Below, one piece after another: positions 44,872 to 61,798 of a stretch of 64,000 nucleotides of DNA. The DNA is from Candidatus Limnocylindrales bacterium. GTDB taxonomy: Bacteria > Chloroflexota > Limnocylindria > Limnocylindrales > CSP1-4. A model generated the notes under the pieces. It was not told where the DNA came from. It ran no database searches and was given only the letters and a program-made list of their open reading frames with translations. The position numbers and the translations under genes are program-made. The first letter of the stretch is position 1, and every line of letters begins with the position of its first letter. The stretch lies in assembly GCA_038322255.1 (NCBI GenBank), contig JBBQFS010000001.1, positions 11,729 through 75,728 of the forward strand, given 5' to 3'.

Positions 44872-45762
44872 ATGCGCGCGTCGCCCGACGAGGCAGCCCA
44901 GATACCGCTCGCCCCCGAGCTCCCGACCCGCCACGTCACCAGCACCAAGATCGTCGCGATCCGCGGCTCCGAGCTCGAGGTGCGCGACGACCTGGTCGTC
45001 GGCGAGGAGCCCCTCGAGATTCTCGCCGCCGGTCCCCGCCAGGAGGCGGTCCAGGTGGCGGTCACGATGCGCACCCCCGGCCACGAGGAGGACCTCGCGA
45101 TCGGCTTCCTCATGAGCGAGGGCCTGCTCGCGGGCAACGAGGTCAAGAGCGTTCAGTACGGCGACCCCGGGGTCATGGCCGAGCCCGACGACAGTGTCCT
45201 CGTCCGCCTGGCTCGGCGTTTCGACCCATCGCTCGTGGCCCAACGGAACTTCGTGGCCACGGCCTCGTGCGGCATCTGCGGCAAGGCCTCCATCGACGAC
45301 GTCGCGATCCGGTGCGAGCCGCTGCCAGAGAACCTGCCCGTCATCGCCCGGTCAGTCATTGCGTCGCTGCCGGATTCGCTGCGCGCGGCGCAGGCAGCCT
45401 TCGACCGAACCGGCGGGCTCCACGCGGCGGGCCTGTTCGAGACCGACGGTCGCGCCGTCGCCGTTCGTGAGGACGTGGGCCGACACAACGCGCTCGACAA
45501 GCTGATCGGCTCGCGATTGCGGGCCCGCGAGCTGCCGCTCTGGGATCGGCTTTTGATGGTTTCGGGCCGGGTGAGCTTCGAGATCGTGCAGAAGGCCGCG
45601 ATGGCCGGCATCCCGATGATCTGCGCCGTGTCGGCCCCGTCCGATCTCGCGGTCCGGCTCGCAGATCGCCTCGGTGTGACGCTCATCGGCTTCCTGCGCG
45701 GCGACGGCTTCAACGTCTACACCCACGACGGCCGCGTCGACCTTCGCGACCTCATGCGCTGA
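44872..45762 (+). CDS. fdhD: Formate dehydrogenase accessory sulfurtransferase FdhD
   Basis: Motifs VTMRTPGHEEDLAIGFLMSEGL, ATASCGICGKASID, DVGRHNALDKLIG and MVSGRVSFEIVQKAAMAGIPMICAVSAPS. Confidence 0.85.
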   Translation: MRASPDEAAQIPLAPELPTRHVTSTKIVAIRGSELEVRDDLVVGEEPLEILAAGPRQEAVQVAVTMRTPGHEEDLAIGFLMSEGLLAGNEVKSVQYGDPGVMAEPDDSVLVRLARRFDPSLVAQRNFVATASCGICGKASIDDVAIRCEPLPENLPVIARSVIASLPDSLRAAQAAFDRTGGLHAAGLFETDGRAVAVREDVGRHNALDKLIGSRLRARELPLWDRLLMVSGRVSFEIVQKAAMAGIPMICAVSAPSDLAVRLADRLGVTLIGFLRGDGFNVYTHDGRVDLRDLMR

Positions 45763-46829: not shown

Positions 46830-47879
46830 TCAGTCCCGGCGTGCGTTCGTGAACTCGAAGCCGAAGCGGCCCTTGATGCAGAGGTGGCCTTCGGTTACGG
46901 TCGAATCCATCGGCGAGGTGACCTTCACGATCGTGTTGTCCTGGACGTGGAGGTCGATCGCGCAGCCGACGCCGCAGTACGGGCAGATCGTCTGGGTCAT
47001 CGTCTGGGCCGACTCGTCCCACGTGCCTGCCTCGCGCATGTCGTACTCCGACTTGAACATCAGCGCACCCGTCGGACAGACGCCGATGCAATTGCCGCAG
47101 TAGACGCAGGCCGAATCGGGCAGGGGCGCGTCCCACTCCGTGGAGATTCGGGCATCAAAGCCGCGGCCCGCGACGGCGATCGCGAACGTGTTCTGGGCGT
47201 CCTCGCCACAGGCCTCGACGCACTTGTAGCAGAGGATGCACTTCGAGTAGTCACGCACGTAGAGGTTGTTATCGACCTTCACCGGCTGGGCGACGGACTC
47301 GGCCACGGACGCTTCTGGGCCGGCGGGGGCGTGGTGATGCCCGGGATCACGGTCATCGCGTTCGTGCGCGGCGGCGGAGCGAGCCGGCGGCCCGAATCTC
47401 AAAGGGTCGGCGCCGTACCGCGCCGCGTAGCGGGCCGCGTCGCCATCGGGCTCGCGAGGACCGGCGAGCGAGAGGTCGACCGACGAGCCGAGGAACTCGA
47501 GCACCACCTTCCGCGAGTGCTGGACGCGCTCGGATTCGGTCTGGATCTCCATGCCCTCCTCGACGCGGCGCGAGCACGCGGGAGCGAGCACGCGCGCCCC
47601 CTTGACCTCGACGACGCACACGCGACAGACGTTCACGGGAGTGAGATTCTCGAGGTAGCACAGGGTCGGGATGTCGAGGCCCTGGGCCCGGCAGGCGTCG
47701 AGGATGGTCGAGCCGGCGGGCACTTCGACCGCGACGCCGTCGATCGAGAGGCTGAGCCGCGCTGGGAGGGCGGCCGGCGGCGGGCCGGGGATGCGCGTCG
47801 CCCGGGCCGGCGGCGTCGTGTAGACGATGCCTGGTGGCGCCGTGTCCACCGCTCCCGGTTGCTGGGGGTCGTGGGTCAC
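46830..47879 (-). CDS. Formate dehydrogenase alpha subunit, N-terminal electron-transfer fragment (2Fe-2S ferredoxin-like, 2x[4Fe-4S] and the MopB-type CPYCGVGC cluster region), ending where the catalytic domain proper begins
   Basis: A GTG at 47879 overlaps the fdsB TGA (GTGA). Motifs: 2Fe-2S region LSIDGVAVEVPAGSTILDAC...CYLENLTPVNVCRVCVV; ferredoxin CxxCxxC (CILCYKCVEAC, CVYCGNCIGVCP); and TICPYCGVGCAIDLHV...GHLCIKGRFGFEF. Stop after ...FTNARRD. 349 aa. Confidence 0.8.
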   Translation of the reverse strand: MTHDPQQPGAVDTAPPGIVYTTPPARATRIPGPPPAALPARLSLSIDGVAVEVPAGSTILDACRAQGLDIPTLCYLENLTPVNVCRVCVVEVKGARVLAPACSRRVEEGMEIQTESERVQHSRKVVLEFLGSSVDLSLAGPREPDGDAARYAARYGADPLRFGPPARSAAAHERDDRDPGHHHAPAGPEASVAESVAQPVKVDNNLYVRDYSKCILCYKCVEACGEDAQNTFAIAVAGRGFDARISTEWDAPLPDSACVYCGNCIGVCPTGALMFKSEYDMREAGTWDESAQTMTQTICPYCGVGCAIDLHVQDNTIVKVTSPMDSTVTEGHLCIKGRFGFEFTNARRD

Positions 47880-49834
47880 AGCGCTGCCAGCTCCGGTTGG
47901 CGGATGGCCGACTCGATCGCCGACGAGGCCGTTTGCCCGAGCCCGCAGATGCTCGCGTCGCGCATCGCCCGGCCGATGTCGGCCAGGAGCACCAGTTCCT
48001 CCTCCCGGGTCCGGACCGCGACGCCGTCTGCCAGGCGCGAGAGGAGCTCCTCCTGGCGAACCGTGCCGACCCGGCAAGGCACGCACTGGCCGCACGACTC
48101 GTCGCGGAAGAACGCGGCGATCCGGCGCAGCGTACCCACGAGATCGGCGGTCTCGTCGAAGACCATCACCACGCCAGACCCCAGGGTCGCATTGATCTCG
48201 CGCGTGCCCTCGAACGTCAGTGGCGTGGCGAGCACCTCAGGCCCGACGAAGACGCCGGCCGCGCCGCCGAGCAGGATCGCGCGGATGGCGCGCCGCTCGG
48301 GCACGCCACCGCCCAGCTCGATGAGCTGGCCCAGGGTCGTCCCGAACGGGACCTCGTACACGCCTGCGCGCCCGACGTTGCCCGACAGGCAGAACAGCTT
48401 CGGCCCGGTTGAGCCCTCGCTGCCGACCTTCGCGAACCGGGCCCCGCCGCCGGGGCCGTCCTCGAGGATCGCGAGCACGTTAACGAGCGTCTCGACATTG
48501 TTGACCGCCGTCGGCTTGCCAAACAGCCCGAACTCGACGGGGAAGGGAGGCTTGTTGCGCGGCTCGCCGCGCTTACCCTCGATCGACTCGAAGAGCGCCG
48601 TCTCCTCGCCACAGATGTAGGCGCCCGCGCCGCGCCGGACCTCGATGTCGAAGGCGAGGCTCGATCCCGCGACCGAGGCGCCGAGGTAGCCGGCGGCTCG
48701 CGCCATCTCGATGGCGCCACCGATGCGCGATTCAGCGAGCGGATATTCGCCACGGATGTAGAGGTAGCCCTTGGACGCGCCCGTGGCGAAGCCCTCGATC
48801 GTCATGGCCTCGACAACCGCGAACGGGTCGAGCTCCATGAGCACGCGATCCTTGAACGTGCCCGGCTCCGACTCGTCGGCGTTGCACACGACGTAGTGGG
48901 GCTGCGCAGGCTGGGCGGCGACCGCGGCCCACTTGCGCCCAGTTGGGAAGGCCGCGCCGCCGCGGCCGAGGAGCCGGCTGTCGGTGACCTCGCCAAGCAC
49001 GGCATCGGCGCCCATTGCCAGCGCCTGCTCGAGGGCGCGGTAGCCGCGATGGGCGACGTAGTCGTCGAGCGAGCTGGGATCGGCCAGGCCGACGCGGCGG
49101 AGCAGCAGGAGCTGCGGCTGGCCGGTCTGGGGCACCGAGGCGTGCGCAGCGTCCCGGAAATCCGGTGCGGGCGGTGCGTGGCCATTGGTTTTGGCAGCCG
49201 CGGACCCTGTCCACTGGGCATTCGCGGCCGACGGGGCGTTCGCCGCCGAGGGGGCCGCGACCGCGCGCTCGAGCCGAGCGATCACGCCCGCGGCATCGAT
49301 CGGCGCGGCGGTCTCCCGGGTCGGCTGCTCGCCGGCGATCGTGAACATCGCGGCCGGCGCGAGCTCGCACAGCCCTAGGCACGGGCTGCGCAGCCAGCCG
49401 ATTCGGCCGTCGCCCGAGGGGGCTCCGGCGGGCCCGAGCGTCCGGCCCAGGTCGGCGCACAGCTCCTCGGCCCCGGCAAGACGGCAGGCGATGTCATCGC
49501 AGACGTGGGCGATGGCCGGCGGCCGCGGCTTCGTGGTGAAGAGGGCGTAGAACGTGGCGACACCATAGGCCTCGGCGGGCGGTACCGACAGGCGCCGGCA
49601 CACGTAGTTCAGGCCCGGCTGCGTGATCTGGCCGACCCGATCCTGCAGCGCGTGCAGCGCCGGCAGGAGGAGGTCGCGCCGGCTCCGGGCTTCGTGCCCG
49701 CCTCTCGCGACGTGCCCCTCGGTCATCGAGTCGCGCCCGCCGCCGCGCCAGCCGCTGTCGGCCGGCCCGAGCACCGCATCGACCGCCGCGCGCTCCCCGG
49801 GGGAAGCCAGCGGCCCGATGACGTGAAGGTCCAT
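47876..49834 (-). CDS. NAD-dependent formate dehydrogenase beta subunit: fused NuoE-like (2Fe-2S thioredoxin-like) and NuoF-like (FMN, NAD, 4Fe-4S) domains
   Basis: N-terminal NuoE/FdsG-like region (LLPALHALQDRVGQI...EAYGVATFYALF...RSPCLGLCELAPAAMF). NuoF motifs (GAGAYICGEETALFESIEGKRGEPRNKPPFP, CGQCVPCRVGT). Confidence 0.85.
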   Translation of the reverse strand: MDLHVIGPLASPGERAAVDAVLGPADSGWRGGGRDSMTEGHVARGGHEARSRRDLLLPALHALQDRVGQITQPGLNYVCRRLSVPPAEAYGVATFYALFTTKPRPPAIAHVCDDIACRLAGAEELCADLGRTLGPAGAPSGDGRIGWLRSPCLGLCELAPAAMFTIAGEQPTRETAAPIDAAGVIARLERAVAAPSAANAPSAANAQWTGSAAAKTNGHAPPAPDFRDAAHASVPQTGQPQLLLLRRVGLADPSSLDDYVAHRGYRALEQALAMGADAVLGEVTDSRLLGRGGAAFPTGRKWAAVAAQPAQPHYVVCNADESEPGTFKDRVLMELDPFAVVEAMTIEGFATGASKGYLYIRGEYPLAESRIGGAIEMARAAGYLGASVAGSSLAFDIEVRRGAGAYICGEETALFESIEGKRGEPRNKPPFPVEFGLFGKPTAVNNVETLVNVLAILEDGPGGGARFAKVGSEGSTGPKLFCLSGNVGRAGVYEVPFGTTLGQLIELGGGVPERRAIRAILLGGAAGVFVGPEVLATPLTFEGTREINATLGSGVVMVFDETADLVGTLRRIAAFFRDESCGQCVPCRVGTVRQEELLSRLADGVAVRTREEELVLLADIGRAMRDASICGLGQTASSAIESAIRQPELAAL

Positions 49835-50094
49835 CGAGTGAGGAGTCTAGCCCTGCCGCCGCGTCCACCGACCGCGGCCCGCCCGACCCGGCTGGGCATG
49901 CCGAAGTTCCGATCCGTGGGGACGCGCTTGTAATGGTCCTGAAATTGGTCCGGAGCCCTACGGGCGCTAACATCCGGCCACCGTCGCGCTCACACCAGTG
50001 ACAGAGGTGTCACTGCGCCCGACGCGCGTAGGAGACCAAAGGGCGCCTCCGTGGGGTCGTCGCTTCGCCGTGTTCGCGTCGACGTGGCCGGTCA

Positions 50095-50166
50095 GGTCGG
50101 TCGCGCGGTCGCCCGGTTCGCGCGGTCGCGCGGTCGCCCGGTTTCGCGCGGTCGCGCGGTCGCGCT
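50095..50166. repeat. Tandem direct repeat, about 25 bp x 2.6 (GGTCGCGCGGTCGCCCGGTT(T)CGCGC), within a 640-bp non-coding spacer
   Basis: Seen in the sequence. Not CRISPR-like: there are no unique spacers and the units are contiguous. Confidence 0.55.
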
Positions 50167-50478
50167 TGACCCGCCAAATGGGCACGCCTTGAGCAATTTC
50201 GGGGCTAAACCAGGGCTAAGCCCGGCTGAAGGCCGTGCACGTCCCCTCGGCCCGTAGCGGCGGCGCCGGATTCACGCTCAGGCTGCCGGCCGACGACCAT
50301 TCGCGACACGGTGCCACAGCGCGCGCAGGTGGCTAGGGCTCAGGTAGACCCGATTCTGATCACGGGGTGTGCATCCTCAGGCTCTAGATCCTTCCCACCC
50401 GGTTTTTCGCGGAGCCTCCTCGAATCAGCGGTACCGGGCGGCGCGTTCCACCTGCTTCGCGGGCCGTGAAGGCGCAGC

Positions 50479-50799
50479 TCAGCCGCCTGGCGCCTGGTAG
50501 CTGGGGTGCATGGAACGAGCCTTGTCGACCTCGTCCGCCGTCAGGAGGACCGTCGTCACGATGTGGGCCGCGCCGGTTGTCGCGACAGTCGTGGACAGCG
50601 CCGCCGCCGCAGCGTTGTCGGGCAGCTCGACGATGAGGATGACGTCGTACTTCCCGAACGACCAGTACATCGCCTCGAGCTTCCCGCCGAGGCTGCTGGC
50701 GGAGGCCTCGAGGGCCTTGATCCGGGTTGCCGCGCCGTCCTTCATCACCCCGGCGAGGCCCGCCTGGGTGTAGTTCGCCGAGAACAGGAAATGGGCCAT
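50479..50799 (-). CDS. GYD domain-containing protein
   Basis: GAGGTG RBS, then ATG. MAHFLFSANYTQAGLAGVMKDGAATRIKALEASASSLGGKLEAMYWSFGKYDVILIVELPD is a typical GYD-family sequence. Confidence 0.75.
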   Translation of the reverse strand: MAHFLFSANYTQAGLAGVMKDGAATRIKALEASASSLGGKLEAMYWSFGKYDVILIVELPDNAAAAALSTTVATTGAAHIVTTVLLTADEVDKARSMHPSYQAPGG

Positions 50800-50858
50800 G
50801 TCGCACCTCGTCCATGGGCGCTCATGCGCCTCCCGGGCATCCTACACGCGTAACCGGT

Positions 50859-52784
50859 TCAGGCCGGAATCGGCGCCGGGAGCTTCTCGACGCGGATCGC
50901 CGTCGCCTTGAACTCGGCCGTGCCTGACTTCGGGTCGGTAGCGTCGATCGTCAGGACGTTCGTGGCGACCTCATCCTGGAAGTGCAGGGTCATGAAGGTC
51001 AGGCCGGGACGCAGGCTGTGATCGATCCGGACCGGCGCCTCGATCGAGCCGCGACGCGAGGTTATCCGGACGCGCTCGCCGTCGATCAGCGAGAACCGCG
51101 CGGCGTCCTCGGGCGAGATGTCCAGCGACTCGCCGCGCCGCAGGGGCGACGTGTAGCCGCTCGACTGGACGCCGGTGTTGTACGAGTCGAGCCGCCGGCC
51201 GGTCGTGAGCCGGATCGGAAAGTCGTCGTCGAGCTTGTCGACCGGCGGGTCGTGGTCGACCGCGACGAACGGCGCCCGCAGCCCCGGCACCGGGTCCTCC
51301 CAGAGGCGCGAGTGCAGGAACAGCTCGCCCGGATGGGTCTCGTCCCAGCACGGCCACTGGATTCCGCCGAGCGACTCGAGCCGGGCGTAGGTCATGCCGC
51401 GATGGACGGGCGACAGCGACCGCAGCTCGTCCCAGGTCCTCTCGGCCGAGGCTTCGCCCCAGTCGCTGCCCATCCGCCGGGCAAGCTCGTAGATGATCCA
51501 GAGGTCCTCGCGTGCCTCGCCCGGTGGGTTCATCGCCCTGCGGACGCGCTGGACGCGGCGCTCCGAGTTCGTGACCGTCCCCTCGGATTCGGCCCACGCC
51601 GCGGCGGCCGGCAGCACCACGTCGGCGATCTGGGCCGTCGCGGTCAGCAGCAGGTCCTGCACGACGAGGAAATCGAGGCCGCCGAGGAGCCGCTTGGCCC
51701 GCTGCTGGTCGGCCTCGGACTGGACGGGATTCTCGCCGATGACGTAGACGGCGCGGAGCTCGCCCTCCTCCATGGCGTCGAACATCTGGGAGAGGTGCCA
51801 GCCGCGCCGCGCCGGGACCGTGACGCCCCAGGCTTCGTCGAACTTCGATCGGAGGGCCTCGTTCTCGACGTACTGGAAGCCAGGGAGTCGGTCGGGGAGG
51901 GCGCCCATGTCGCCGCCTCCCTGGACGTTGTTCTGGCCCCGGAGCGGGTTGAGGCCGCTGCCGTACTTCCCGACATGCCCGCAGAGCAGCGCGAGGTTGA
52001 TCAGCGCCAGCACGTTGTCGACCGCGTTGTGGTGTTCGGTGATGCCGAGCGTCCAGCAGATCATCGCCTTGTCGGCGGTCGCGAAGGCGTGGGCCAGCTC
52101 CTGGATCGCGGAGGCGGGCACGCCCGTCTCGCGCTCCGCGTACTCGAGCGTGTACGACTCGACCTTGGCCCGGTAGGCCTCGAAATCTGACGTCGCGCGC
52201 TCGATGAACTCGGTGTTCGCCAGGCCGGCGTGGATGATCTCGCGCCCGATGGCGTTCGCGAGGGCGATGTCAGACCCGACGTCGAGCCCCAGCCAGACGT
52301 CGGCCCACTCGGCCGAGCTCGTCCGGCGCGGGTCGACCGCGTAGAGCCGGGCGCCGTTGCGGACGCCGCGCAGGAGGTGGTGGAAGAAGATCGGATGCGT
52401 CTCCCGGGCGTTGCTGCCCCAGAGCACGATCAGGTCCGTCTCTTCAGCCTCGCGATATGAGCTGGTTCCGCCACCAGCGCCGAACACGGTCGCCAGACCG
52501 GCGACAGATGGCGCGTGTCAGGTGCGGTTGCAGCTGTCGATGTTGTTGCTGCCCAGGACCTGCCGGGAGAGCTTCTGGGCCGCGAAGTTGACCTCGTTGG
52601 TCGCCTTCGAACAGCTGAAGATCCCAATCGGGGTTCGCGCGTCCGCGGTGGCCTTGGCGGCCAGCGCGGCGCGGAATCCGGCGACGGTCCGGTCGAGCGC
52701 CTCGTCCCAGGTGGCCGGGCGGAGCTCGCCGCCCTTCGTGTCGCGCACGAGGGGCTGGGTCAGGCGAACGTACGACTTCGGCAA
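50859..52784 (-). CDS. Formate dehydrogenase alpha subunit, molybdopterin (Mo-bisPGD) catalytic fragment, selenocysteine-containing (in-frame TGA at 52518-52520)
   Basis: GGAGGA RBS 4 nt before the TTG at 52784 (MPKSYVRLTQPLVRDTKGGELRPATWDEALD...). Continues ...LGSNNIDSCNRT-TGA-HAPSVAGLATVFGAGGG..., matching the FdhF/FdsA Sec/Cys active-site context (…NN.D.CAR.U.HGPSVAGL). The downstream 540 aa are a full MopB domain plus the molybdopterin-binding C-domain. 641 codons if TGA is decoded. Confidence 0.8.
52489..52505 (-). other. Putative bacterial SECIS hairpin (GUCGCC-GGUCU-GGCGAC) 12 nt 3' of the in-frame UGA
   Basis: On the mRNA: UGA-CACGCGCCAUCU-GUCGCCGGUCUGGCGAC. A 6-bp stem with a GGUCU apical loop, similar in position and loop sequence to the E. 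coli fdhF SECIS apical stem-loop. Confidence 0.55.
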
Positions 52785-52988
52785 GGGTCCTCCGTGCCTT
52801 CTCGTGGCCGTCGATCGGCCGCGTTCGTCGCCGGCTGCTGCCGGTCCGGCCAGTGTAGCGAGGCACCCGCCGAGTGCCGGGTGCCAGCTCGGGCCGTCTC
52901 GGCGGAGAGGCCCCGGCCCGTCCGGCCCGCCCGGTTGGTTGTGGCCAGTTCGGACCGGCTCGGACGTCCGTGGCGATTTTTCCGCCAC

Positions 52989-53753
52989 CTAGGTCCGCCT
53001 GGGGCCACCGACGCGCCGCGCGACGATGTTGAGGCGGACGTAGTCGAGCTTCGCCTCGGGCATGCGCGCGGCGACCGCCTGCACGAAGGGCTTCCGCTCT
53101 CCGGGTGGCAGCTCGGCGAGGAAGGTCCGAAGGCAGACCGTCTCGAGGAACGACTCGAAGGGCTCGCCGGGATCGAAGTGCGTCGGCTCGTCGGAGAGCC
53201 AGGTCTCGATCTCGACGAAGCCGCTCCTCTCGAGCCGCGCCCGCGTGGCCTCGGGCGTCTCGAAGCGGTGCTCCCGGTGGAAGCCTGGATGGACCTCGAG
53301 GGCGGTGTCGAGCAGCGCGGCGACGTTGCCGGCGCCGCCGCACTGGGCCACGAGCCAGCCGCCGGGACGCAGGACGGCGGCGAGATTCGCAAAGAGCGCG
53401 TCGTGATCGAGGACCCAGTGGAAGGTCGCCGTCGACAGGATCGCGTCGACGTTGGCGGCGAGCGGGAGCCGTAGCGGGCGGGCGAGGTCCGCCTCGACGT
53501 AGTCCACCTGCTCGCCGAATCTCGCCAGCCGTCCACGCGCCTCCGCGAGCATCGACGCCGACGCGTCGAGCGCGACCACGCGCCCGTGCGGCAACCGCCC
53601 GAGCAGCATCTCGGTGACGCGTCCCGTGCCGCACCCTGCGTCGAGGACCGTCTCGTCGCCGTCGAGCGGCAACCGATCGAGGACCGCCGCGCCCCAGCGC
53701 GCCTGCGGGTCGGCGACCCGATCGTACGCTCTCGCATTCCAGTCGCCGGTCAT
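52989..53753 (-). CDS. Class I SAM-dependent methyltransferase (trans-aconitate methyltransferase Tam-like)
   Basis: MTGDWNARAYDRVADPQARWGAAVLDRLPLDGDETVLDAGCGTGRVTEML parallels the Tam N-terminus (DWN..Y, V.D.GCG.G). Confidence 0.8.
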   Translation of the reverse strand: MTGDWNARAYDRVADPQARWGAAVLDRLPLDGDETVLDAGCGTGRVTEMLLGRLPHGRVVALDASASMLAEARGRLARFGEQVDYVEADLARPLRLPLAANVDAILSTATFHWVLDHDALFANLAAVLRPGGWLVAQCGGAGNVAALLDTALEVHPGFHREHRFETPEATRARLERSGFVEIETWLSDEPTHFDPGEPFESFLETVCLRTFLAELPPGERKPFVQAVAARMPEAKLDYVRLNIVARRVGGPRRT

Positions 53754-53760
53754 GGCACGA

Positions 53761-54288
53761 CTATGGCATCACCCAGCGCGCCGGTGGCACCTCGACCGCG
53801 AGGACGGTTGCGTTCCACGGCGGTGGCGTCGATCCCGGGATGTCGAGGTCGGTCGGCAAGTCGAGCCCGAGCACGACGACGGCAACCTTCTCGGAACCCG
53901 AGAAGCTGACCCAGGCGTGCATGAACTGGCCAGGTCGCACGACGGGGCCGTAGCACGGCGGCATCGATCCGCCACCCGGCCAGAACACCGCGCAGAAGAA
54001 GGGCCCCGGCTCGATGGCGATCCGGTCGATCGGCAGCCGGACCGGGGCGATCGCGAGCTCGACGGCCATCGTCGCCGAGGGACATGGGTCGCCGGAAAGG
54101 GTCGATGGCAACGGCAGCGGCTCGATGCGGCAGGCGACCAGTCGGGTCGAATGCAACGGACCCGCGGGGGTTGCGTCGGAAGCCGGCCGACCGAATCCCA
54201 GGGCGACCGCAAGGGCGACGGCCAGCGGAACCGTGATCCCGGCAAGCAGCACGGCGATGCCGAGCCACCCACCGCGCCGAGAGGTCAC
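53761..54288 (-). CDS. Hypothetical membrane-anchored protein (175 aa)
   Basis: A GTG at 54288 overlaps the selD TGA stop (GTGA). N-terminal TM (GGWLGIAVLLAGITVPLAVALAVALGF). No family recognised. Lies 8 nt upstream of the methyltransferase start. Confidence 0.45.
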   Translation of the reverse strand: MTSRRGGWLGIAVLLAGITVPLAVALAVALGFGRPASDATPAGPLHSTRLVACRIEPLPLPSTLSGDPCPSATMAVELAIAPVRLPIDRIAIEPGPFFCAVFWPGGGSMPPCYGPVVRPGQFMHAWVSFSGSEKVAVVVLGLDLPTDLDIPGSTPPPWNATVLAVEVPPARWVMP

Positions 54289-55391
54289 GCGAGGGCGACG
54301 GCCGCGAGTGTCGCGGCTTCGACGCGGCCGATCGTCCAGCTGGACACGCCTGCAGCACGTAGCGCGCTTTCGACCGCTGGCGCCCCGCGCGCGGGAATGG
54401 CGGCGAGGAGACCGCCCGAGGTTTGCGGGTCGTGGGCGAGGGTGACGACTTCTCCCGAGACGTCGCCGCCAACGGTCAGGGCCGGCGCGACGAACCGGCG
54501 GTTGTTGGCGGCCCCGCCGGTCTCCACGCAGTCACGCGCGAGGTCGAGGGCGCCATCCAGCGCCGGGAGCGCCGACGCGTCGAACACGAACTTCGTTCCT
54601 GAGGCTCGAGCCATCTCGAGGCCGTGGCCCAGGAGGCCGAAGCCGGTGACGTCGGTCGCCCCGCGGATGCCGTGCGCGACGAGCACCTCCGCTGCCGCGC
54701 GGTTCAACGCGCGCATGGAGTCGACGGCCGCCGCGAGCTCGTCGTCGCTCGTCCGACCCTGCCGGCGCCCGCTCACGAGCAGCCCGGTCCCGAGCGGCTT
54801 CGTGAGCATCAGGAGGTCGCCCGGCCGCGCGCCTCCCTTGCGCAGCAGGTGATCGGGCGAGGCAACCCCGACAACGGCCAGGCCGTATTTCGGCTCCTTG
54901 TCCCGGATCGTATGGCCGCCTGCGAGAAGCCCCCCGGCTTCGCGGACCTTCGATGCCGCGCCGTCGAGGATCGCCCGGAACGCGTAGCTCGGCATGTCCT
55001 CCGGGATCGCGGCGACCGAGAGCGCGAACAGGACCCGGCCGCCCATCGCGAAGACGTCCGACAGGGCATTCGCCGCCGCGATCTCGCCGAAGGTGCGAGG
55101 GTCGTCGACGATCGGGGGGAAGAAGTCGAGCGTCCCGATGACGGCGACGCCGGGCGCAACCAGGTGGACGGCGGCGTCGTCCGGCGGGTCGAGCCCGGCG
55201 ATGAGGCCGGTCGAGCCCTCGGTCGCCGACCGGTGGTCGTGACCGTAAACCGCGTCAACGTCGTCGATGCCGAGCCCGGCGAGCGCCTCGGCCAGAGCGT
55301 CAGCCCCGAGCTTCGCCGCACAGCCGCCGCACGTCGTCAGCTCCGTCAAACGGATGGGCGGGAACGTCAGCTCGGGAAGCTGGGACGGCAT
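54285..55391 (-). CDS. selD: Selenide, water dikinase (selenophosphate synthetase)
   Basis: ATG at 55391. IRLTELTTCGGCAAKLG (Cys form), DDAAV..., GTLDFFPPIVDDPRTFGEIAAANALSDVFAMGG, GGHTIRDKEPKYGLAVVGV and TDVTGFGLLGH align with E. coli SelD. The 5' part of the track ORF (to 56084) is rejected. Confidence 0.9.
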   Translation of the reverse strand: MPSQLPELTFPPIRLTELTTCGGCAAKLGADALAEALAGLGIDDVDAVYGHDHRSATEGSTGLIAGLDPPDDAAVHLVAPGVAVIGTLDFFPPIVDDPRTFGEIAAANALSDVFAMGGRVLFALSVAAIPEDMPSYAFRAILDGAASKVREAGGLLAGGHTIRDKEPKYGLAVVGVASPDHLLRKGGARPGDLLMLTKPLGTGLLVSGRRQGRTSDDELAAAVDSMRALNRAAAEVLVAHGIRGATDVTGFGLLGHGLEMARASGTKFVFDASALPALDGALDLARDCVETGGAANNRRFVAPALTVGGDVSGEVVTLAHDPQTSGGLLAAIPARGAPAVESALRAAGVSSWTIGRVEAATLAAVALA

Positions 55392-57324: not shown

Positions 57325-57421
57325 GGGAGCGGAGGGGTCCCGGTGGGCTTCCTCGTCTTCAAAACGAGTGGCGCGGCGCTCGGCGTCGCGCGGTGGGTTC
57401 GACTCCCATGCGCTCCCGCCA
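57325..57421 (+). tRNA. selC: tRNA-Sec (selC), anticodon TCA
   Basis: 97 nt. The acceptor stem GGGAGCG(G)/(G)CGCTCCC has 7 bp plus a G-G at position 8. D-region CCCGGTGGGC. Anticodon loop CTTCAAA with TCA at 57359-57361. Long variable arm. T-arm GGTGGGTTCGACTCCCAT is identical in loop to E. coli selC. Discriminator G and CCA are encoded. Sits immediately upstream of selA. Confidence 0.8.
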
Positions 57422-57470: not shown

Positions 57471-58922
57471 ATGACGAGAGAACGGCGGCCCCCCAGCGTC
57501 GACGCGATCCTGCGTGCCGCGGCGCCGGGCCTCGACGGGCGCGACCACGAGGCGGTCGTCCTCGTGGCACGCGAGGTCGTGGCGGGGGAGCGGGCGCGGC
57601 TCGCGGGCGGCGGCCCTGGGGCGGCCGCGGCGAAGCTCGCCGACGAGCTGCGCGAACGCCTCGAGGCGCTCGAGGGGGGAAGCGATGAGGCAGGCGCGCG
57701 GGCCGCCGGCTCCGGGCTTCAGCCCGTCATCAACGCGACCGGCGTGATCCTGCACACGAACCTCGGGCGCGCGCCGTGGCCCGACGCGGCGATCAAGGCA
57801 GGCCAACTGGCCGCGAGCGGTCCCTCGATGCTCGAGCTCGATGCCGACTCGGGGCGCCGGGGCCGGCGCTTCCGGGCGGTCGAGGATGAAGTCGTCGCAT
57901 TGACCGGCGCCGACGACGCGCTGGTCACCAACAACAATGCCGCCGCGGTTGCGCTTGCGGTCGGGCTCGCGGGGCGCGGCGGCGTTGCGGTCTCGCGTGG
58001 TGAGCTCGTCGAGATCGGTGGCGGCGTCCGGATTCCGGAGATCGTGCGCCGCGCGGGCGCCCGCCTCCTCGAGGTGGGCACGACGAATCGCACCCGCGTC
58101 GCCGACTTCGAAACGGCCCTCGTCGAAGGCCGCGCGAAGCTCGTCTTGCGCGTCCATCCCTCGAACTTCACCCAAACCGGGTTCGTGGAATCGCCGGACG
58201 ACGCGGAGCTCGCGGCGGTGGCCCACCGTCACGGGGCCCTGGTGGTCGACGACCTCGGGTCGGGCGCCCTACTCGACACGGCGCGATTCGGTCTCGCCCA
58301 CGAGCCGATGCCGCGCGAGCGCCTCGAAGCGGGTGCTGACCTCGTGACATTTTCCGGCGACAAGCTCGTCGGTGGGCCTCAGGCCGGGATCATCGCTGGC
58401 CGCGCCGATCTCGTGGAACGGCTGCGGCGCGACCCCCTGGCCCGCGCGATGCGCCCGGACAAGGTCGTCCTCGCGGCGCTGGCTGCGACGCTCAGGCTGT
58501 ACCGAGCCGGGGTCGCGCACACCGCCATCCCGATCTGGCGCCAGATTGCGGCACCACTCGACGGGCTCGAACGACGCGCGACCGACGTCCTCGCGGCGCT
58601 CACCGGCGGCGCGTCCCTGCTCAACGCCGACGCCTCGCCCGGGACCCGCGGCGTCACGCTCGGCGTCGAGCCGACCGAGTCGACCATCGGCGGCGGCTCG
58701 CTGCCCGGGCAGACGCTCGCGTCCTGGGCAGTCGTCATCGTCGGTCCGCCGCCGCAGCGCCTGCTCGCCGCGCTTCGGGACGGGCACCCGCCGGTGATCG
58801 GCCGGGTGGTCGACGACGCGGTCGTGCTCGACTTTCGAACGGTAGAGCCACGCGACGACAAGCGATTCGCCGACGCCGTTCGGGCAGCGATTCTGTCGAC
58901 CTCACCGCCCCTGCGGGGTTGA
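57471..58922 (+). CDS. selA: L-seryl-tRNA(Sec) selenium transferase
   Basis: ATG at 57471 (MTRERRPPSVDAILRAA...). PLP-lysine region FSGDKLVGGPQAGIIAG. INATGVILHTNLGRAPW. Confidence 0.9.
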   Translation: MTRERRPPSVDAILRAAAPGLDGRDHEAVVLVAREVVAGERARLAGGGPGAAAAKLADELRERLEALEGGSDEAGARAAGSGLQPVINATGVILHTNLGRAPWPDAAIKAGQLAASGPSMLELDADSGRRGRRFRAVEDEVVALTGADDALVTNNNAAAVALAVGLAGRGGVAVSRGELVEIGGGVRIPEIVRRAGARLLEVGTTNRTRVADFETALVEGRAKLVLRVHPSNFTQTGFVESPDDAELAAVAHRHGALVVDDLGSGALLDTARFGLAHEPMPRERLEAGADLVTFSGDKLVGGPQAGIIAGRADLVERLRRDPLARAMRPDKVVLAALAATLRLYRAGVAHTAIPIWRQIAAPLDGLERRATDVLAALTGGASLLNADASPGTRGVTLGVEPTESTIGGGSLPGQTLASWAVVIVGPPPQRLLAALRDGHPPVIGRVVDDAVVLDFRTVEPRDDKRFADAVRAAILSTSPPLRG

Positions 58923-58929
58923 CACCAGC

Positions 58930-59145
58930 ATGGACGCGACCACGGCGTTCGGCGTCGCGGCCCTCAGCTTCATGATGCTGATGTATGCGCTGGAACGGCG
59001 CGGGCGCGTCTTCGTCCTCGCATTCGCAGCGGGGTGCGCCCTCTCGAGCGCCTACGGATTCGCGTCTGGCGCCTGGCCGTTCGGCGTTGTTGAAGCCATC
59101 TGGACGGTCATCGCGCTCCGTCGCTACGCCACGGACCCGAGCTGA
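58930..59145 (+). CDS. Hypothetical small membrane protein (71 aa, 2 predicted TM helices)
   Basis: ORF between selA and selB. Its TGA overlaps the selB ATG (TGATG). No RBS upstream. No family recognised. Confidence 0.35.
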   Translation: MDATTAFGVAALSFMMLMYALERRGRVFVLAFAAGCALSSAYGFASGAWPFGVVEAIWTVIALRRYATDPS

Positions 59146-61076
59146 TGCATGACCCCAACGTCGGGCCGACCGTCGTCATCGGCACCGCCGGCCACATCGA
59201 CCACGGCAAGACGAGCCTCCTGCGCGCGTTGACCGGCATCGACGCCGACCGGCTGCCCGAGGAGCAGGCCCGGGGCATGACGATCGACGTCGGATACGCC
59301 CATCTCACGTTCGGCGATGGCGTCGAGCTCGACTTCGTCGACGTGCCGGGGCATGACCGCCTGATCGGCAACATGCTCGTCGGAGCGGGCGAGGTCGACG
59401 CGGCGATGGTCGTCGTCGCCGCCGACGATGGGCCTCGGCCGCAGACGCTGGAGCACCTGCAATTGCTCGACGCGCTCGGCATCGACGAGGGTCTCGCGGT
59501 GGTGACGAAGGTCGATGCGGTCGACCCGACGAGAGTCACGGAGGTCGTGAGCGCCGTGACCGCGCTCCTCGCCGTGACATCGCTCCGTGGTTCTCCCGTT
59601 CTCCCGGCATCGTCGGTGACAGGAGAGGGGATCGAGGCGGTTCGAACGGCGCTTCGATCTGTGCGTGACGGGGTTGCTGCGCGATGGTCGGCGGTTGGGC
59701 TGCCACCTCACGGCGCGGGCCCGCTCCGGCTCGCAGTCGACCGCGCCTTCGCGGTCAAGGGTCGGGGCGCGGTTGTCACAGGGAGCCTTCGCGGCGGCGC
59801 GCTGGAATCCGGAGCGACGCTCCGGCGCGAGCCAGGCGGTGAATCGATCCGCATTCGCGAGGTCCAAGTGCACAGCCATGCGCGGGATCGTCACGACGGC
59901 GGCCGGACGGCGCTCAACGTGGTGGGGCTGCCGGTCGAGTCCCTACGGCGTGGCGACGTGCTGACGAGCGGACCCGGTGTGCTCGGGAGCGATCGGATCC
60001 TCGTCGAGCTTCGGCCGCCAGCCCGCGTTGGGCCAGCGACGGCTCGTCCACCGAAGGTCGGCGCTCGACTCCGACTGCACGTCGGCACCGATAAGGCCGA
60101 GGCGACGCTCCGGCTGGTTCGCGCGCGCCCGAGTGCGGCGATCCTGACCCTGGAGCGACCAGTTGCGACATTCGTGGGCGATCGAGCAATCCTTCGGGAG
60201 CCAGCGTCGGGGGACGTCGTCGCCGGCGTTCGCGTCCTCGACCCGCGACCGCCTCGGGGCCCTTCGCGACGTCGCTTGACCGCTGCACGCCTTCAGGTCC
60301 TGTCGGCGGCGGTCGAAACGGGCGACGTCAGCGCGACTTGGTCGGCTCGCGTCGAGTTGCACGGGGCCATCGCGCTGGCGTCATCGCTTGACGGCGGAGG
60401 TCGAGGGCCGACGGCGCCGAATCTGGCGCTCGCGGCCGACGTGCGAACCGCGCTTGAGGAGGCCGCCCTCGAGGCCGTGACCGCGCAGCATCGCGAGGCG
60501 CCACTTCGTCCGGGTCTGGCACTCCCGCGCGCGCGCGCCGCGCTCCTCCGGCGGCTCCGCTCCCTCGCGACCATCGAGCGCCGCGACGCCGAGGCTGCGG
60601 GATCGGCCGTTGCCGGCGTGCTCGACCACCTCGTCGAGCAGGGCTTGCTTGTCCGGCAGGGCGAGGCGCTGCGCGATCCGTCCCGCGGCTCAGAGCTGCC
60701 GCCGGACCTGGTCGCCGCGATGGATCGGCTCGAATCAGCCCTCGCGATCGCCGCGCCGCCGCCGCTCGAAGCCGCGGCGCTCGAGGCTGGCTGCCCAACC
60801 GAGGGCATTCGCGCGCTCCAGGCCGCCGGGCGCATTGTTCGACTCGGGCCGGATCTCGCCTGGGCGACGCCGACGTTCCACCGCCTCGCGGCCGTCGCCC
60901 TCGACCGATCGCGCCAGGCGCCGCTCACGCCCGCGGCCTACCGGGACGCGACCGGGACCAGCCGGCGCTACGTGCTCGCCATCCTCGAGGACCTGGATCG
61001 GCGCGGAATCCTGCAGCGAACCCCCGAGGGCCACATTCCCGGCCCTCGGGCTCCGCGGGCGGAGCCGGTCGCGTGA
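59145..61076 (+). CDS. selB: Selenocysteine-specific translation elongation factor
   Basis: G-domain motifs (IGTAGHIDHGKTSL, DVPGH, TKVD). Long C-terminal winged-helix region. 643 aa. Confidence 0.9.
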   Translation: MHDPNVGPTVVIGTAGHIDHGKTSLLRALTGIDADRLPEEQARGMTIDVGYAHLTFGDGVELDFVDVPGHDRLIGNMLVGAGEVDAAMVVVAADDGPRPQTLEHLQLLDALGIDEGLAVVTKVDAVDPTRVTEVVSAVTALLAVTSLRGSPVLPASSVTGEGIEAVRTALRSVRDGVAARWSAVGLPPHGAGPLRLAVDRAFAVKGRGAVVTGSLRGGALESGATLRREPGGESIRIREVQVHSHARDRHDGGRTALNVVGLPVESLRRGDVLTSGPGVLGSDRILVELRPPARVGPATARPPKVGARLRLHVGTDKAEATLRLVRARPSAAILTLERPVATFVGDRAILREPASGDVVAGVRVLDPRPPRGPSRRRLTAARLQVLSAAVETGDVSATWSARVELHGAIALASSLDGGGRGPTAPNLALAADVRTALEEAALEAVTAQHREAPLRPGLALPRARAALLRRLRSLATIERRDAEAAGSAVAGVLDHLVEQGLLVRQGEALRDPSRGSELPPDLVAAMDRLESALAIAAPPPLEAAALEAGCPTEGIRALQAAGRIVRLGPDLAWATPTFHRLAAVALDRSRQAPLTPAAYRDATGTSRRYVLAILEDLDRRGILQRTPEGHIPGPRAPRAEPVA

Positions 61077-61798
61077 ACCGACGGCCCGACCGACGGCCCG
61101 ATGGATCGCCGGATCCTCCAAGCGTGTCGGCCCCGCTCCGGCAGGCCGTCACGGCGATCGTGCTGGCAGGCGGTCGTTCGTCGCGGTTCGGCGGCCCGAA
61201 GCTCGTCGTCGAGCTTGACGGCGCGACCCTCCTCGACCGCGCCGTGCGCGCGGTCCAATCCGTCGCCACGTTTGTCATCGTCGCTGGTCCGGAGCCCGCG
61301 GCGCGGTTGGGTTCGTCCACCCCGCGACGTCGCCTTGGCGCTGCTGGCGACGCCCCGGCTTCGTCCGTCCGGTTCGTCGACGACGACCAGCCATTTGCCG
61401 GCCCGCTCGCGGCGCTCGCCGGCGCGCTCCGCGAGACCTCGACCGAGCTCGCCATCATCGTCGGTGGCGACATGCCGGGCCTCGTGCCCGCCGTGCTCGC
61501 CGCGATGCTGGACAACCTCGCGTCGGACCTCACTGTCGATGCGGTCCACCTCGCCGGCGTGACAGAGCCCCCGCATCGGGAGGTCCTCCCGCTCGGGCTC
61601 CGAGTCGCACCGGCCGCGAAGGCCGCCGTCGCGCGCCTGGGAAACGGCGATCGCTCGCTCGTGCGCCTCCTTGACCGCCTTCGGACCGTCGAGATTCCGG
61701 CCACCGAATGGTTGGCTCTCGACCCGGCCGGCCGGACCCTCCTGGACGTCGACGAGCCGAGAGATCTGGAGCGTTGGGACGCAGGCGAGATTCGCTGA
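61073..61798 (+). CDS. mobA: Molybdenum cofactor guanylyltransferase
   Basis: A GTG overlaps the selB TGA (GTGA). N-terminus TAIVLAGGRSSRFGGPKLVVELDG is the MobA NTP-transferase signature. Confidence 0.8.
   Translation: MNRRPDRRPDGSPDPPSVSAPLRQAVTAIVLAGGRSSRFGGPKLVVELDGATLLDRAVRAVQSVATFVIVAGPEPAARLGSSTPRRRLGAAGDAPASSVRFVDDDQPFAGPLAALAGALRETSTELAIIVGGDMPGLVPAVLAAMLDNLASDLTVDAVHLAGVTEPPHREVLPLGLRVAPAAKAAVARLGNGDRSLVRLLDRLRTVEIPATEWLALDPAGRTLLDVDEPRDLERWDAGEIR

Follow-up and report, generated by a model that had tools for sequence, protein, structure and literature searches.

Formate dehydrogenase FdhA is the most widespread bacterial selenoprotein (PMC1794560, PMC13188914), and its gene and the sel genes are often found in one operon (PMC1794560). 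In Actinobacteria and mycobacteria, selC-selA-selB clusters adjoin fdhA, and for mycobacteria the selC-selA-selB arrangement has been discussed as possibly co-transcribed and regulatory (PMC13449736), and the three NAD-dependent formate dehydrogenases that have been studied structurally use cysteine (Cys) (PMC13397495). Here we analyze a stretch of 64,000 nt (hereafter the window) from a Candidatus Limnocylindrales bacterium of the Chloroflexota (assembly GCA_038322255.1, contig JBBQFS010000001.1, positions 11,729 to 75,728 of the forward strand), which contains an in-frame TGA at 52520..52518 on the minus strand, within a formate dehydrogenase (FDH) catalytic gene at 50859..52784. Judging from sequence comparisons, the corresponding UGA is very probably decoded as selenocysteine (Sec), at the metal-ligand position of a molybdenum or tungsten (Mo/W) bis-pyranopterin guanine dinucleotide (bis-PGD) formate dehydrogenase. 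It is followed by a hairpin of the type expected for a selenocysteine insertion sequence (SECIS). The three central features are as follows.

50859..52784, minus strand: formate dehydrogenase catalytic subunit with Molybdopterin and Molydop_binding domains and without the FS0 domain, i.e., Molybdop_Fe4S4 (Pfam, TIGR01591, PDB alignments, conserved start and Shine-Dalgarno sequence)
52518..52520, minus strand: predicted UGA selenocysteine codon, residue 89 of the catalytic subunit (in frame; aligned with Sec140 of FdhH, 1aa6; TGA in 79/79 relatives)
52489..52505, minus strand: predicted SECIS apical hairpin, 6-bp stem and 5-nt loop (sequence, folding, pairing, synonymous-site entropy)

Two open reading frames (ORFs), 52518..52988 (156 codons) and 50859..52487 (542 codons), share one frame and are parted by the TGA, as the original prediction had stated. 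Between the TGA and the GTG that opens the second ORF lie 30 nt, free of further stops, which encode HAPSVAGLAT, so that the peptide around the TGA reads LGSNNIDSCNRT-*-HAPSVAGL and the predicted tryptic peptide across the recoded codon would be T-U-HAPSVAGLATVFGAGGGTSSYR. Pfam domains span both ORFs (PF00384 Molybdopterin, 1.6e-54; PF01568 Molydop_binding, 5.5e-26). The read-through protein was searched against the PDB sequences with phmmer, and its best matches are the FdhF of the T. kivui HDCR (1e-140), E. coli FdhH (4e-136) and FdsA-type NAD-dependent enzymes (about 1e-121). In the phmmer alignment the stop codon falls under the 'X' (Sec140) of E. coli FdhH (PDB 1aa6; nnidscnrt-[TGA]-hapsvagl versus nnvdccarv-X-hgpsvagl), in agreement with the earlier proposal that the flanking peptide is the Sec/Cys active-site context of E. 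coli FdhF. A conserved His directly follows the TGA (His141 of 1aa6) and the conserved Arg motif is present (NPLRGQNNVQG versus NPVRGQNNVQG in FdhH). The class I active-site signature 'C/U-H ... RGQ' combines a Sec or Cys metal ligand and a His with the Arg in RGQ (PMC8808070), and the catalytic subunit carries both the Sec/Cys-His pair and the RGQ Arg of this signature.

Conservation of the codon was assessed in 80 related loci from species-representative genomes (71-88% protein identity), 79 of which cover the TGA site. These relatives belong to Limnocylindria and other Chloroflexota, Acidobacteriota, Methylomirabilota/Rokubacteria, Planctomycetota (including the cultured Aquisphaera insulae), Gaiellales and Dormibacterota, amounting to at least six phyla. 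Homologues in relatives had been suggested as a check, with TGA or TGC as the possible outcomes: the codon is TGA in 79/79, in the context NNIDSCNRT-TGA-HAPSV, and the peptide is conserved in frame on both sides of it. The same comparison delimits the gene. The frame and the TGA of ORF 52518..52988 are as originally described, whereas roughly its first 68 codons are non-coding and the true start is TTG 52784. This start is preceded by the Shine-Dalgarno sequence GGAGGA and gives the N-terminus M-PKSYVRLTQPLV; the codons upstream of it have a low-complexity translation, and the Molybdopterin domain sets in at residue 75 of the 156-aa ORF (Pfam). An ATG, GTG or TTG stands at the equivalent position in essentially all of the 78 relatives examined, usually behind a GGAGG-like purine-rich site, and several relatives have an in-frame stop just upstream of it. 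The catalytic gene's own terminator is also TGA.

Current annotations interrupt this gene. The 120 closest proteins in a collection of 5.8 billion proteins (83-100% identity) are 522-557 aa long, mostly 541-545 aa, and all of them start after the UGA. The selenoprotein is therefore systematically mis-annotated, being cut at the UGA in NCBI, JGI and ENA predictions.

The hairpin had been predicted 12 nt after the UGA as GUCGCC-GGUCU-GGCGAC, and this is exactly what is found at 52505..52489: the stem strands are GUCGCC (52505..52500) and GGCGAC (52494..52489), and the loop GGUCU (52499..52495) begins 18 nt after the UGA. Numbered with the T of the TGA as 0, the stem occupies +15..+20 and +26..+31 and the loop +21..+25. 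The bSECIS model of Zhang and Gladyshev (bSECISearch) specifies a stem-loop directly after an in-frame UGA and within the ORF, a loop of 3-9 nt, an upper stem of 4-16 bp, G in the first two loop positions, a UGA-loop distance of 16-37 nt and a minimum free energy (MFE) of at most -7.5 kcal/mol (PMC13188914); the hairpin agrees with all of these constraints (5-nt loop, 6-bp stem, GG start, 18 nt, -9.5 kcal/mol) and departs from none. It also fits an account of bacterial SECIS elements in which the stem has 6-8 bp and the loop carries a conserved G, about 20 nt downstream (PMC4605307). Folded by itself, the 17-mer has a z-score of -3.1 at this energy. The hairpin in isolation is weak evidence, and it is the comparative signal that is very strong and indeed decisive.

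Across the 80 sequences, four of the hairpin's third-codon positions (+17, +20, +26, +29) show no variation at all (80/80) and the fifth, +23, is U in 75; the loop positions G+21 and G+22 are invariant as well. The flanking synonymous positions (+8, +11, +14, +32, +35, +41, +44, +47 onward) vary freely. Synonymous-site entropy, used here in place of covariation statistics, was controlled with a codon alignment of 77 full-length genes containing 239 conserved four-fold-degenerate codon columns. Mean third-position entropy over these columns is 1.15 bits. Zero entropy occurs in four columns only, namely codons +5, +6, +8 and +9 after Sec, and codon +7 has 0.35 bits; outside the hairpin, only codon -11 comes down to 0.4 bits or less, and the flanking codons +2, +3, +10, +11 and +13 to +18 range from 1.2 to 1.9 bits. 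The five lowest-entropy sites thus form one consecutive run, for which the chance is 235/C(239,5) or about 4e-8, and the run coincides exactly with the hairpin. Pairing is likewise maintained, with 402/402 stem cells paired (100%; 67 distinct sequences) despite 11 wobble changes and 1 compensatory change: C>U substitutions leave a G-U pair in 7 distinct sequences, A>G substitutions leave a U-G pair in 4, and locus L074 has the single compensatory change, from C-G to U-A. Together these patterns indicate that the hairpin is under purifying selection at synonymous sites.

Several results weigh against reading this element as a SECIS. Placed in its 66-nt context, the fold has a z-score of -0.92, no better than shuffled sequences, and the MFE structure picks another pairing, CGCCA/UGGCG. 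Covariation is not significant, the observed score being reached by 52 of 500 shuffles; with so little variation in the stem there is almost none to see, and the case for an RNA structure therefore rests on synonymous-site conservation and not on compensatory change. The covariance search that the original prediction had recommended, run with the Rfam models, does not recover the element: a scan of the window at gathering thresholds returns no SECIS and no riboswitch, and the only SECIS model to respond in a permissive scan is SECIS_3 (RF01989), the top hit, at 13.4 bits against a gathering threshold of 63 (E = 3.3). This SECIS_3 match spans the UGA to +55, and with a score below threshold the element is not a member of that family and the match is unusable as evidence. 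The extended lower helix of the E. coli type is not conserved here, and the E. coli minihelix has a bulged U where the present hairpin has none.

Two other pairings were evaluated on the same alignment. The alternative MFE pairing CGCCA/UGGCG has 74.9% of its cells paired, with one pair broken in 56 of the 67 distinct sequences, and was discarded. A lower helix of the E. coli kind, with the UGA inside it (GACACG/CGUGUU), reaches 84.6% of cells; two of its pairs are broken in 37-49% of sequences, at synonymous sites that vary freely, and it was likewise set aside. As a separate observation, five loci of the Methylomirabilota/Rokubacteria type (L056, L061, L062, L063, L065) have the loop GGGCU in place of GGUCU, i.e., G at +23. 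In E. coli the loop U is important for SelB binding, and the altered loop suggests a lineage-specific SelB-SECIS variant.

Genes for Sec decoding and for maturation of the enzyme are found in the same window.

54285..55391, minus strand: selD, selenophosphate synthetase (Cys form), ATG at 55391 (TIGR00476, 318 bits versus 125)
57325..57417, plus strand: selC, tRNA-Sec, anticodon UCA (Rfam RF01852, 69.2 bits versus gathering threshold 47; ARAGORN tRNA-SeC tca)
57471..58922, plus strand: selA, Sec synthase, 54 nt 3' of selC (TIGR00474, 439.5 bits versus 267.9; Pfam SelA)
59145..61076, plus strand: selB, Sec-specific elongation factor with C-terminal winged-helix domain (TIGR00475, 280.2 bits versus 242.25; Pfam SelB-wing_3, residues 591-631)
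44872..45762, plus strand: fdhD, sulfurtransferase for FDH maturation (NF001943, 278.7 bits versus 269; convergent with the operon in relatives)
61073..61798, plus strand: mobA-like molybdenum cofactor guanylyltransferase, under curated cut-offs (NCBIfam, a weak 66 bits versus 164; after selB in relatives)

The Sec-decoding trait is complete, with selA, selB, selC and selD all above curated thresholds, as had been anticipated; tRNA-Sec, SelA, SelB and SelD lie within 7 kb. Among the Chloroflexota-type relatives scanned, tRNA-Sec occurs in the same neighbourhood in 29/29. A genuine stop or frameshift in the orthologues together with the lack of a SECIS prediction by dedicated tools, or the lack of a functional selC, had been named as grounds for abandoning the reading; the orthologues keep the TGA, with neither a frameshift nor a variable stop at the site, and selC scores above its threshold. 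By analogy with the E. coli and Moorella paradigm, SelB-GTP-Sec-tRNA(Sec) would use the winged-helix domains at the C-terminus of SelB to bind the loop of the hairpin at the mRNA entrance when a ribosome arrives at the UGA, and would deliver Sec there in competition with RF2. The product would be one 641-residue catalytic subunit in which Sec89 ligates Mo or W.

Other explanations of the TGA were weighed against Sec decoding. Were it a true premature stop, inactivating an ancestral Cys- or Sec-type FDH gene, one could understand why gene callers take it as a stop and why the closest database proteins are fragments that start after it, and the alpha subunit does look broken in that it has no Fe4S4 domain. 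A decaying gene would nevertheless have to explain a TGA shared by species-level genomes of at least six phyla, flanks that stay in frame, without further stops, at 71-88% identity, a missing domain that is supplied by a conserved separate gene (see below) and a complete Sec machinery next to it. Because the TGA is kept in 79/79 loci, a sequencing artefact is ruled out together with the pseudogene, which this conservation effectively refutes and to which we assign next to no probability. It is also very improbable that translation stops at the UGA, releasing an 88-aa peptide, and re-initiates at GTG 52487 to make a 542-aa protein. This is how databases model the gene, and the in-frame GTG is indeed only 30 nt downstream; yet the HAPSVAGLAT between UGA and GTG is almost invariant in the 80 sequences, and two polypeptides would lose the metal ligand along with this segment and its catalytic His (PMC8808070). 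No Shine-Dalgarno sequence is evident before the GTG. Moreover, the GTG is the Val codon of VFG, whose third base may be G, C, T or A, so that many relatives have no start codon there.

UGA is reassigned in some uncultured lineages, and the UGA-C context is leaky in E. coli, which would allow the codon to be read as a standard amino acid (Trp, Cys or Gly) through a genome-wide code change or near-cognate suppression. Against this, TGA terminates 11 of the 13 confidently assigned neighbouring genes, the catalytic gene included; since TGA is the normal stop of the neighbours, the code itself is unchanged and recoding is confined to this site. In addition, the Sec genes co-occur with the FDH gene in relatives, a dedicated conserved hairpin follows the codon, and the position is that of the Sec/Cys metal ligand, all of which leaves a standard amino acid with very little likelihood. 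A final possibility concerns the hairpin only: the nucleotide conservation after the UGA might reflect codon usage, a different RNA or protein binding site or an antisense feature. The near absence of covariation and the subthreshold Rfam SECIS scores would suit such an explanation. The conserved block, however, is exactly the 17-nt hairpin and ends at its edges, every stem substitution keeps pairing, and the hairpin agrees in spacing and loop with both E. coli fdhF and the bSECIS model (PMC13188914). Codon usage fares no better, since the conserved Gly codon GGU is non-preferred in this 71% GC genome and other Gly codons in the alignment vary freely. We accordingly consider a non-SECIS origin of the conservation most unlikely. 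Recoding of the UGA as Sec, called the simplest reading by the original prediction, is supported by the 79/79 TGA codons, by hairpin conservation and by the full sel set.

The enzyme differs from a conventional FDH in how its alpha subunit is encoded, and two further genes on the same strand are relevant here.

46830..47879, minus strand: stand-alone Fe-S subunit, 349 aa, with a Fer2_4 [2Fe-2S] domain, two ferredoxin-type [4Fe-4S] motifs and Molybdop_Fe4S4 (FS0) (Pfam, TIGR01591, FdsA alignment)
47876..49834, minus strand: NuoE-NuoF fusion, [2Fe-2S] thioredoxin-like domain plus flavin mononucleotide (FMN)/NADH-binding subunit, predicted diaphorase partner (Pfam, NCBIfam, PDB matches HydB, FdsB and MeFDH1 beta)

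The N-terminal [4Fe-4S] Molybdop_Fe4S4 domain is not on the catalytic polypeptide according to both Pfam and TIGR01591, whose match begins at profile position 52. The missing FS0 domain is instead the C-terminus of the separate Fe-S protein, which covers TIGR01591 positions 1-50; positions 52-127 fall before the UGA and 141-672 after it. Scored separately, the three pieces reach 53, 60.5 and 542.7 bits, a rough sum of 656 against the cut-off of 666.25. Aligned with FdsA of the R. capsulatus type, the Fe-S protein corresponds to residues 18-305 and the catalytic subunit to 308-933, and together they rebuild FdsA. The GTG start of the Fe-S gene overlaps the nuoEF stop (GTGA). Relatives from different phyla have the same gene order, from the catalytic gene through nuoEF to the Fe-S gene, and usually a convergent fdhD just beyond it, wherever the contig reaches: NuoEF follows the catalytic gene in about 70 loci and an Fe-S ORF was found in about 60. 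The 50-70 related genomes that have the relevant genes on the contig retain the split arrangement, and they represent at least six phyla. In nearly all relatives the Fe-S protein ends 51-68 residues past the CxxCxxGC motif. Its closest homologues are stand-alone proteins in 120/120 cases (310-397 aa), named only '2Fe-2S-binding protein', 'HndD' or 'YjgC', and databases label the split enzyme as a '2Fe-2S-binding protein' plus a truncated 'YjgC-like oxidoreductase'. Since the split is conserved and the domain is supplied by a separate gene, the split is functional and not a sign of decay.

Domain content and conserved gene order suggest that the catalytic, Fe-S and NuoE-NuoF subunits make up a formate dehydrogenase of the FdsABG/MeFDH1 type, cytoplasmic and linked to NAD(P), in which the separate NuoG-like Fe-S subunit would supply the proximal [4Fe-4S] cluster in trans. 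Electrons would pass from the pterin to FS0 on the Fe-S subunit, then through the ferredoxin-type and [2Fe-2S] clusters to the NuoF-like FMN and finally to NAD(P)+, as in FdsABG/MeFDH1. Residues 103-213 of the Fe-S subunit contain no Cys/His ligands at the place where NuoG, FdsA and HydA modules carry a His-ligated [4Fe-4S] cluster (N5/FS4C, PF10588) and consist of a linker of low complexity; none of the 120 homologues of this subunit has PF10588 in its Pfam list either. No FdsD-like ORF was recognized, the ORF between the genes encoding a GYD-domain protein. We tentatively raise the possibility, which we hold to be somewhat doubtful, that the enzyme represents an undescribed architectural class of NAD-linked FDH: an FdsA-type alpha subunit cleanly fissioned between its FS0 and Mo/W-pterin domains, with the electron path from pterin through a conserved Lys to FS0 crossing a subunit interface, a permuted gene order, loss of the N5-type cluster and Sec in place of Cys. 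A literature search for a split FDH found no description of one, a result that does not prove novelty.

The GYD-domain protein (106 aa, 50479..50799, minus strand; Pfam, 83 bits) lies between the catalytic gene and nuoEF. A GYD homologue occupies the same place in loci L045, L007, L036, L011, L030 and L037 but many relatives lack it and have just 7-70 nt between the two genes; over all relatives the distance between them ranges from 7 nt to more than 7 kb. ORF 50384..50815 (143 aa) overlaps the GYD ORF in a different frame; it matches nothing in Pfam or NCBIfam, is without a homologue in the relatives, and was rejected as a gene in favour of the GYD ORF, which is real. The spacer upstream of nuoEF (49835..50478, about 640 nt) is non-coding and unusually long, and contains a tandem repeat at 50098..50165 with a 26-nt unit in 2.6 copies (97% matches). 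On the other side of the catalytic gene, an inverted repeat (GTGGCGgaaaaaTCGCCAC, 52969..52988, minus strand) is located just 3' of the TAG stop (52989..52991) of an S-adenosylmethionine (SAM)-methyltransferase gene (52989..53753). It may be a terminator-like hairpin, one that has no T-run, and about 200 nt of non-coding leader separate it from the FDH start.

The main value of the Sec finding is in annotation. As the gene is cut at the UGA in 120/120 of the closest entries, formate metabolism and selenium dependence are under-called in the abundant soil and freshwater Chloroflexota of the Limnocylindria type and in their Acidobacteriota, Planctomycetota and Rokubacteria relatives. The 80-sequence alignment also shows, in natural sequences and with unusual clarity, that selection on an fdhF-type SECIS acts on the 17-nt apical minihelix only and not on the extended lower helix. 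Selenocysteine itself is routine here, as this is the commonest bacterial selenoprotein beside its own sel genes, and the alpha subunit, with its conserved split and permuted order, is a variant of modest interest. Should the split alpha indeed be undescribed, it would be of interest for the study and engineering of Mo/W formate dehydrogenases, as a Sec-containing NAD-linked enzyme whose FS0 is supplied in trans.

Compared with described systems, the closest likeness of the recoding site is to E. coli fdhF. The fdhF SECIS sequence used as reference was confirmed, as fdhF and at 99% identity or more, in 5413 of the 5420 E. coli records hit. The position and loop type that the original prediction had likened to fdhF hold up, with GGUCU at the same offsets +21..+25 and within the same Gly-Leu codons, GGU CUG. 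Both genes have CAC after the UGA and both proteins have the catalytic motif U-H ... RGQ; they share a common fold over FdhH residues 61-688 (E = 4e-136), and in each system the SECIS is, or here would be, read by SelB with tRNA-Sec. In contrast to fdhF, the stem here is a perfect 6-bp G+C-rich helix from +15, and unlike FdhH the protein is without the counterpart of residues 1-60, i.e., the [4Fe-4S] domain, and has NuoE/F/G-like partners rather than hydrogenase 3.

With FdsABG(D) of R. capsulatus and C. necator and with MeFDH1 of M. extorquens (Fdh1AB), the locus shares a NuoF-like FMN subunit, a NuoE-like [2Fe-2S] domain and a NuoG-like Fe-S module. An FdhD/FdsC-type sulfurtransferase is nearby, as for FdsABG, and NuoE and NuoF are fused as they are in the 572-aa beta chain of MeFDH1 (7e5z_B). 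The differences from these enzymes are Sec instead of Cys, an alpha subunit that is split between FS0 and the Mo domain and not a single polypeptide, a permuted gene order, the absence of the PF10588 domain for the His-ligated N5-type cluster, and the lack of an identified FdsD. The mycobacterial and actinobacterial clusters likewise have tRNA-Sec directly upstream of selA-selB, with selD and a single selenoprotein FDH gene nearby; in the present case the phylum is Chloroflexota-like and the FDH is NAD-linked and split. Taken as a whole, the feature adds a mis-annotated member to the best-known family of bacterial selenoproteins; its SECIS is of the fdhF type and the arrangement is a textbook one.

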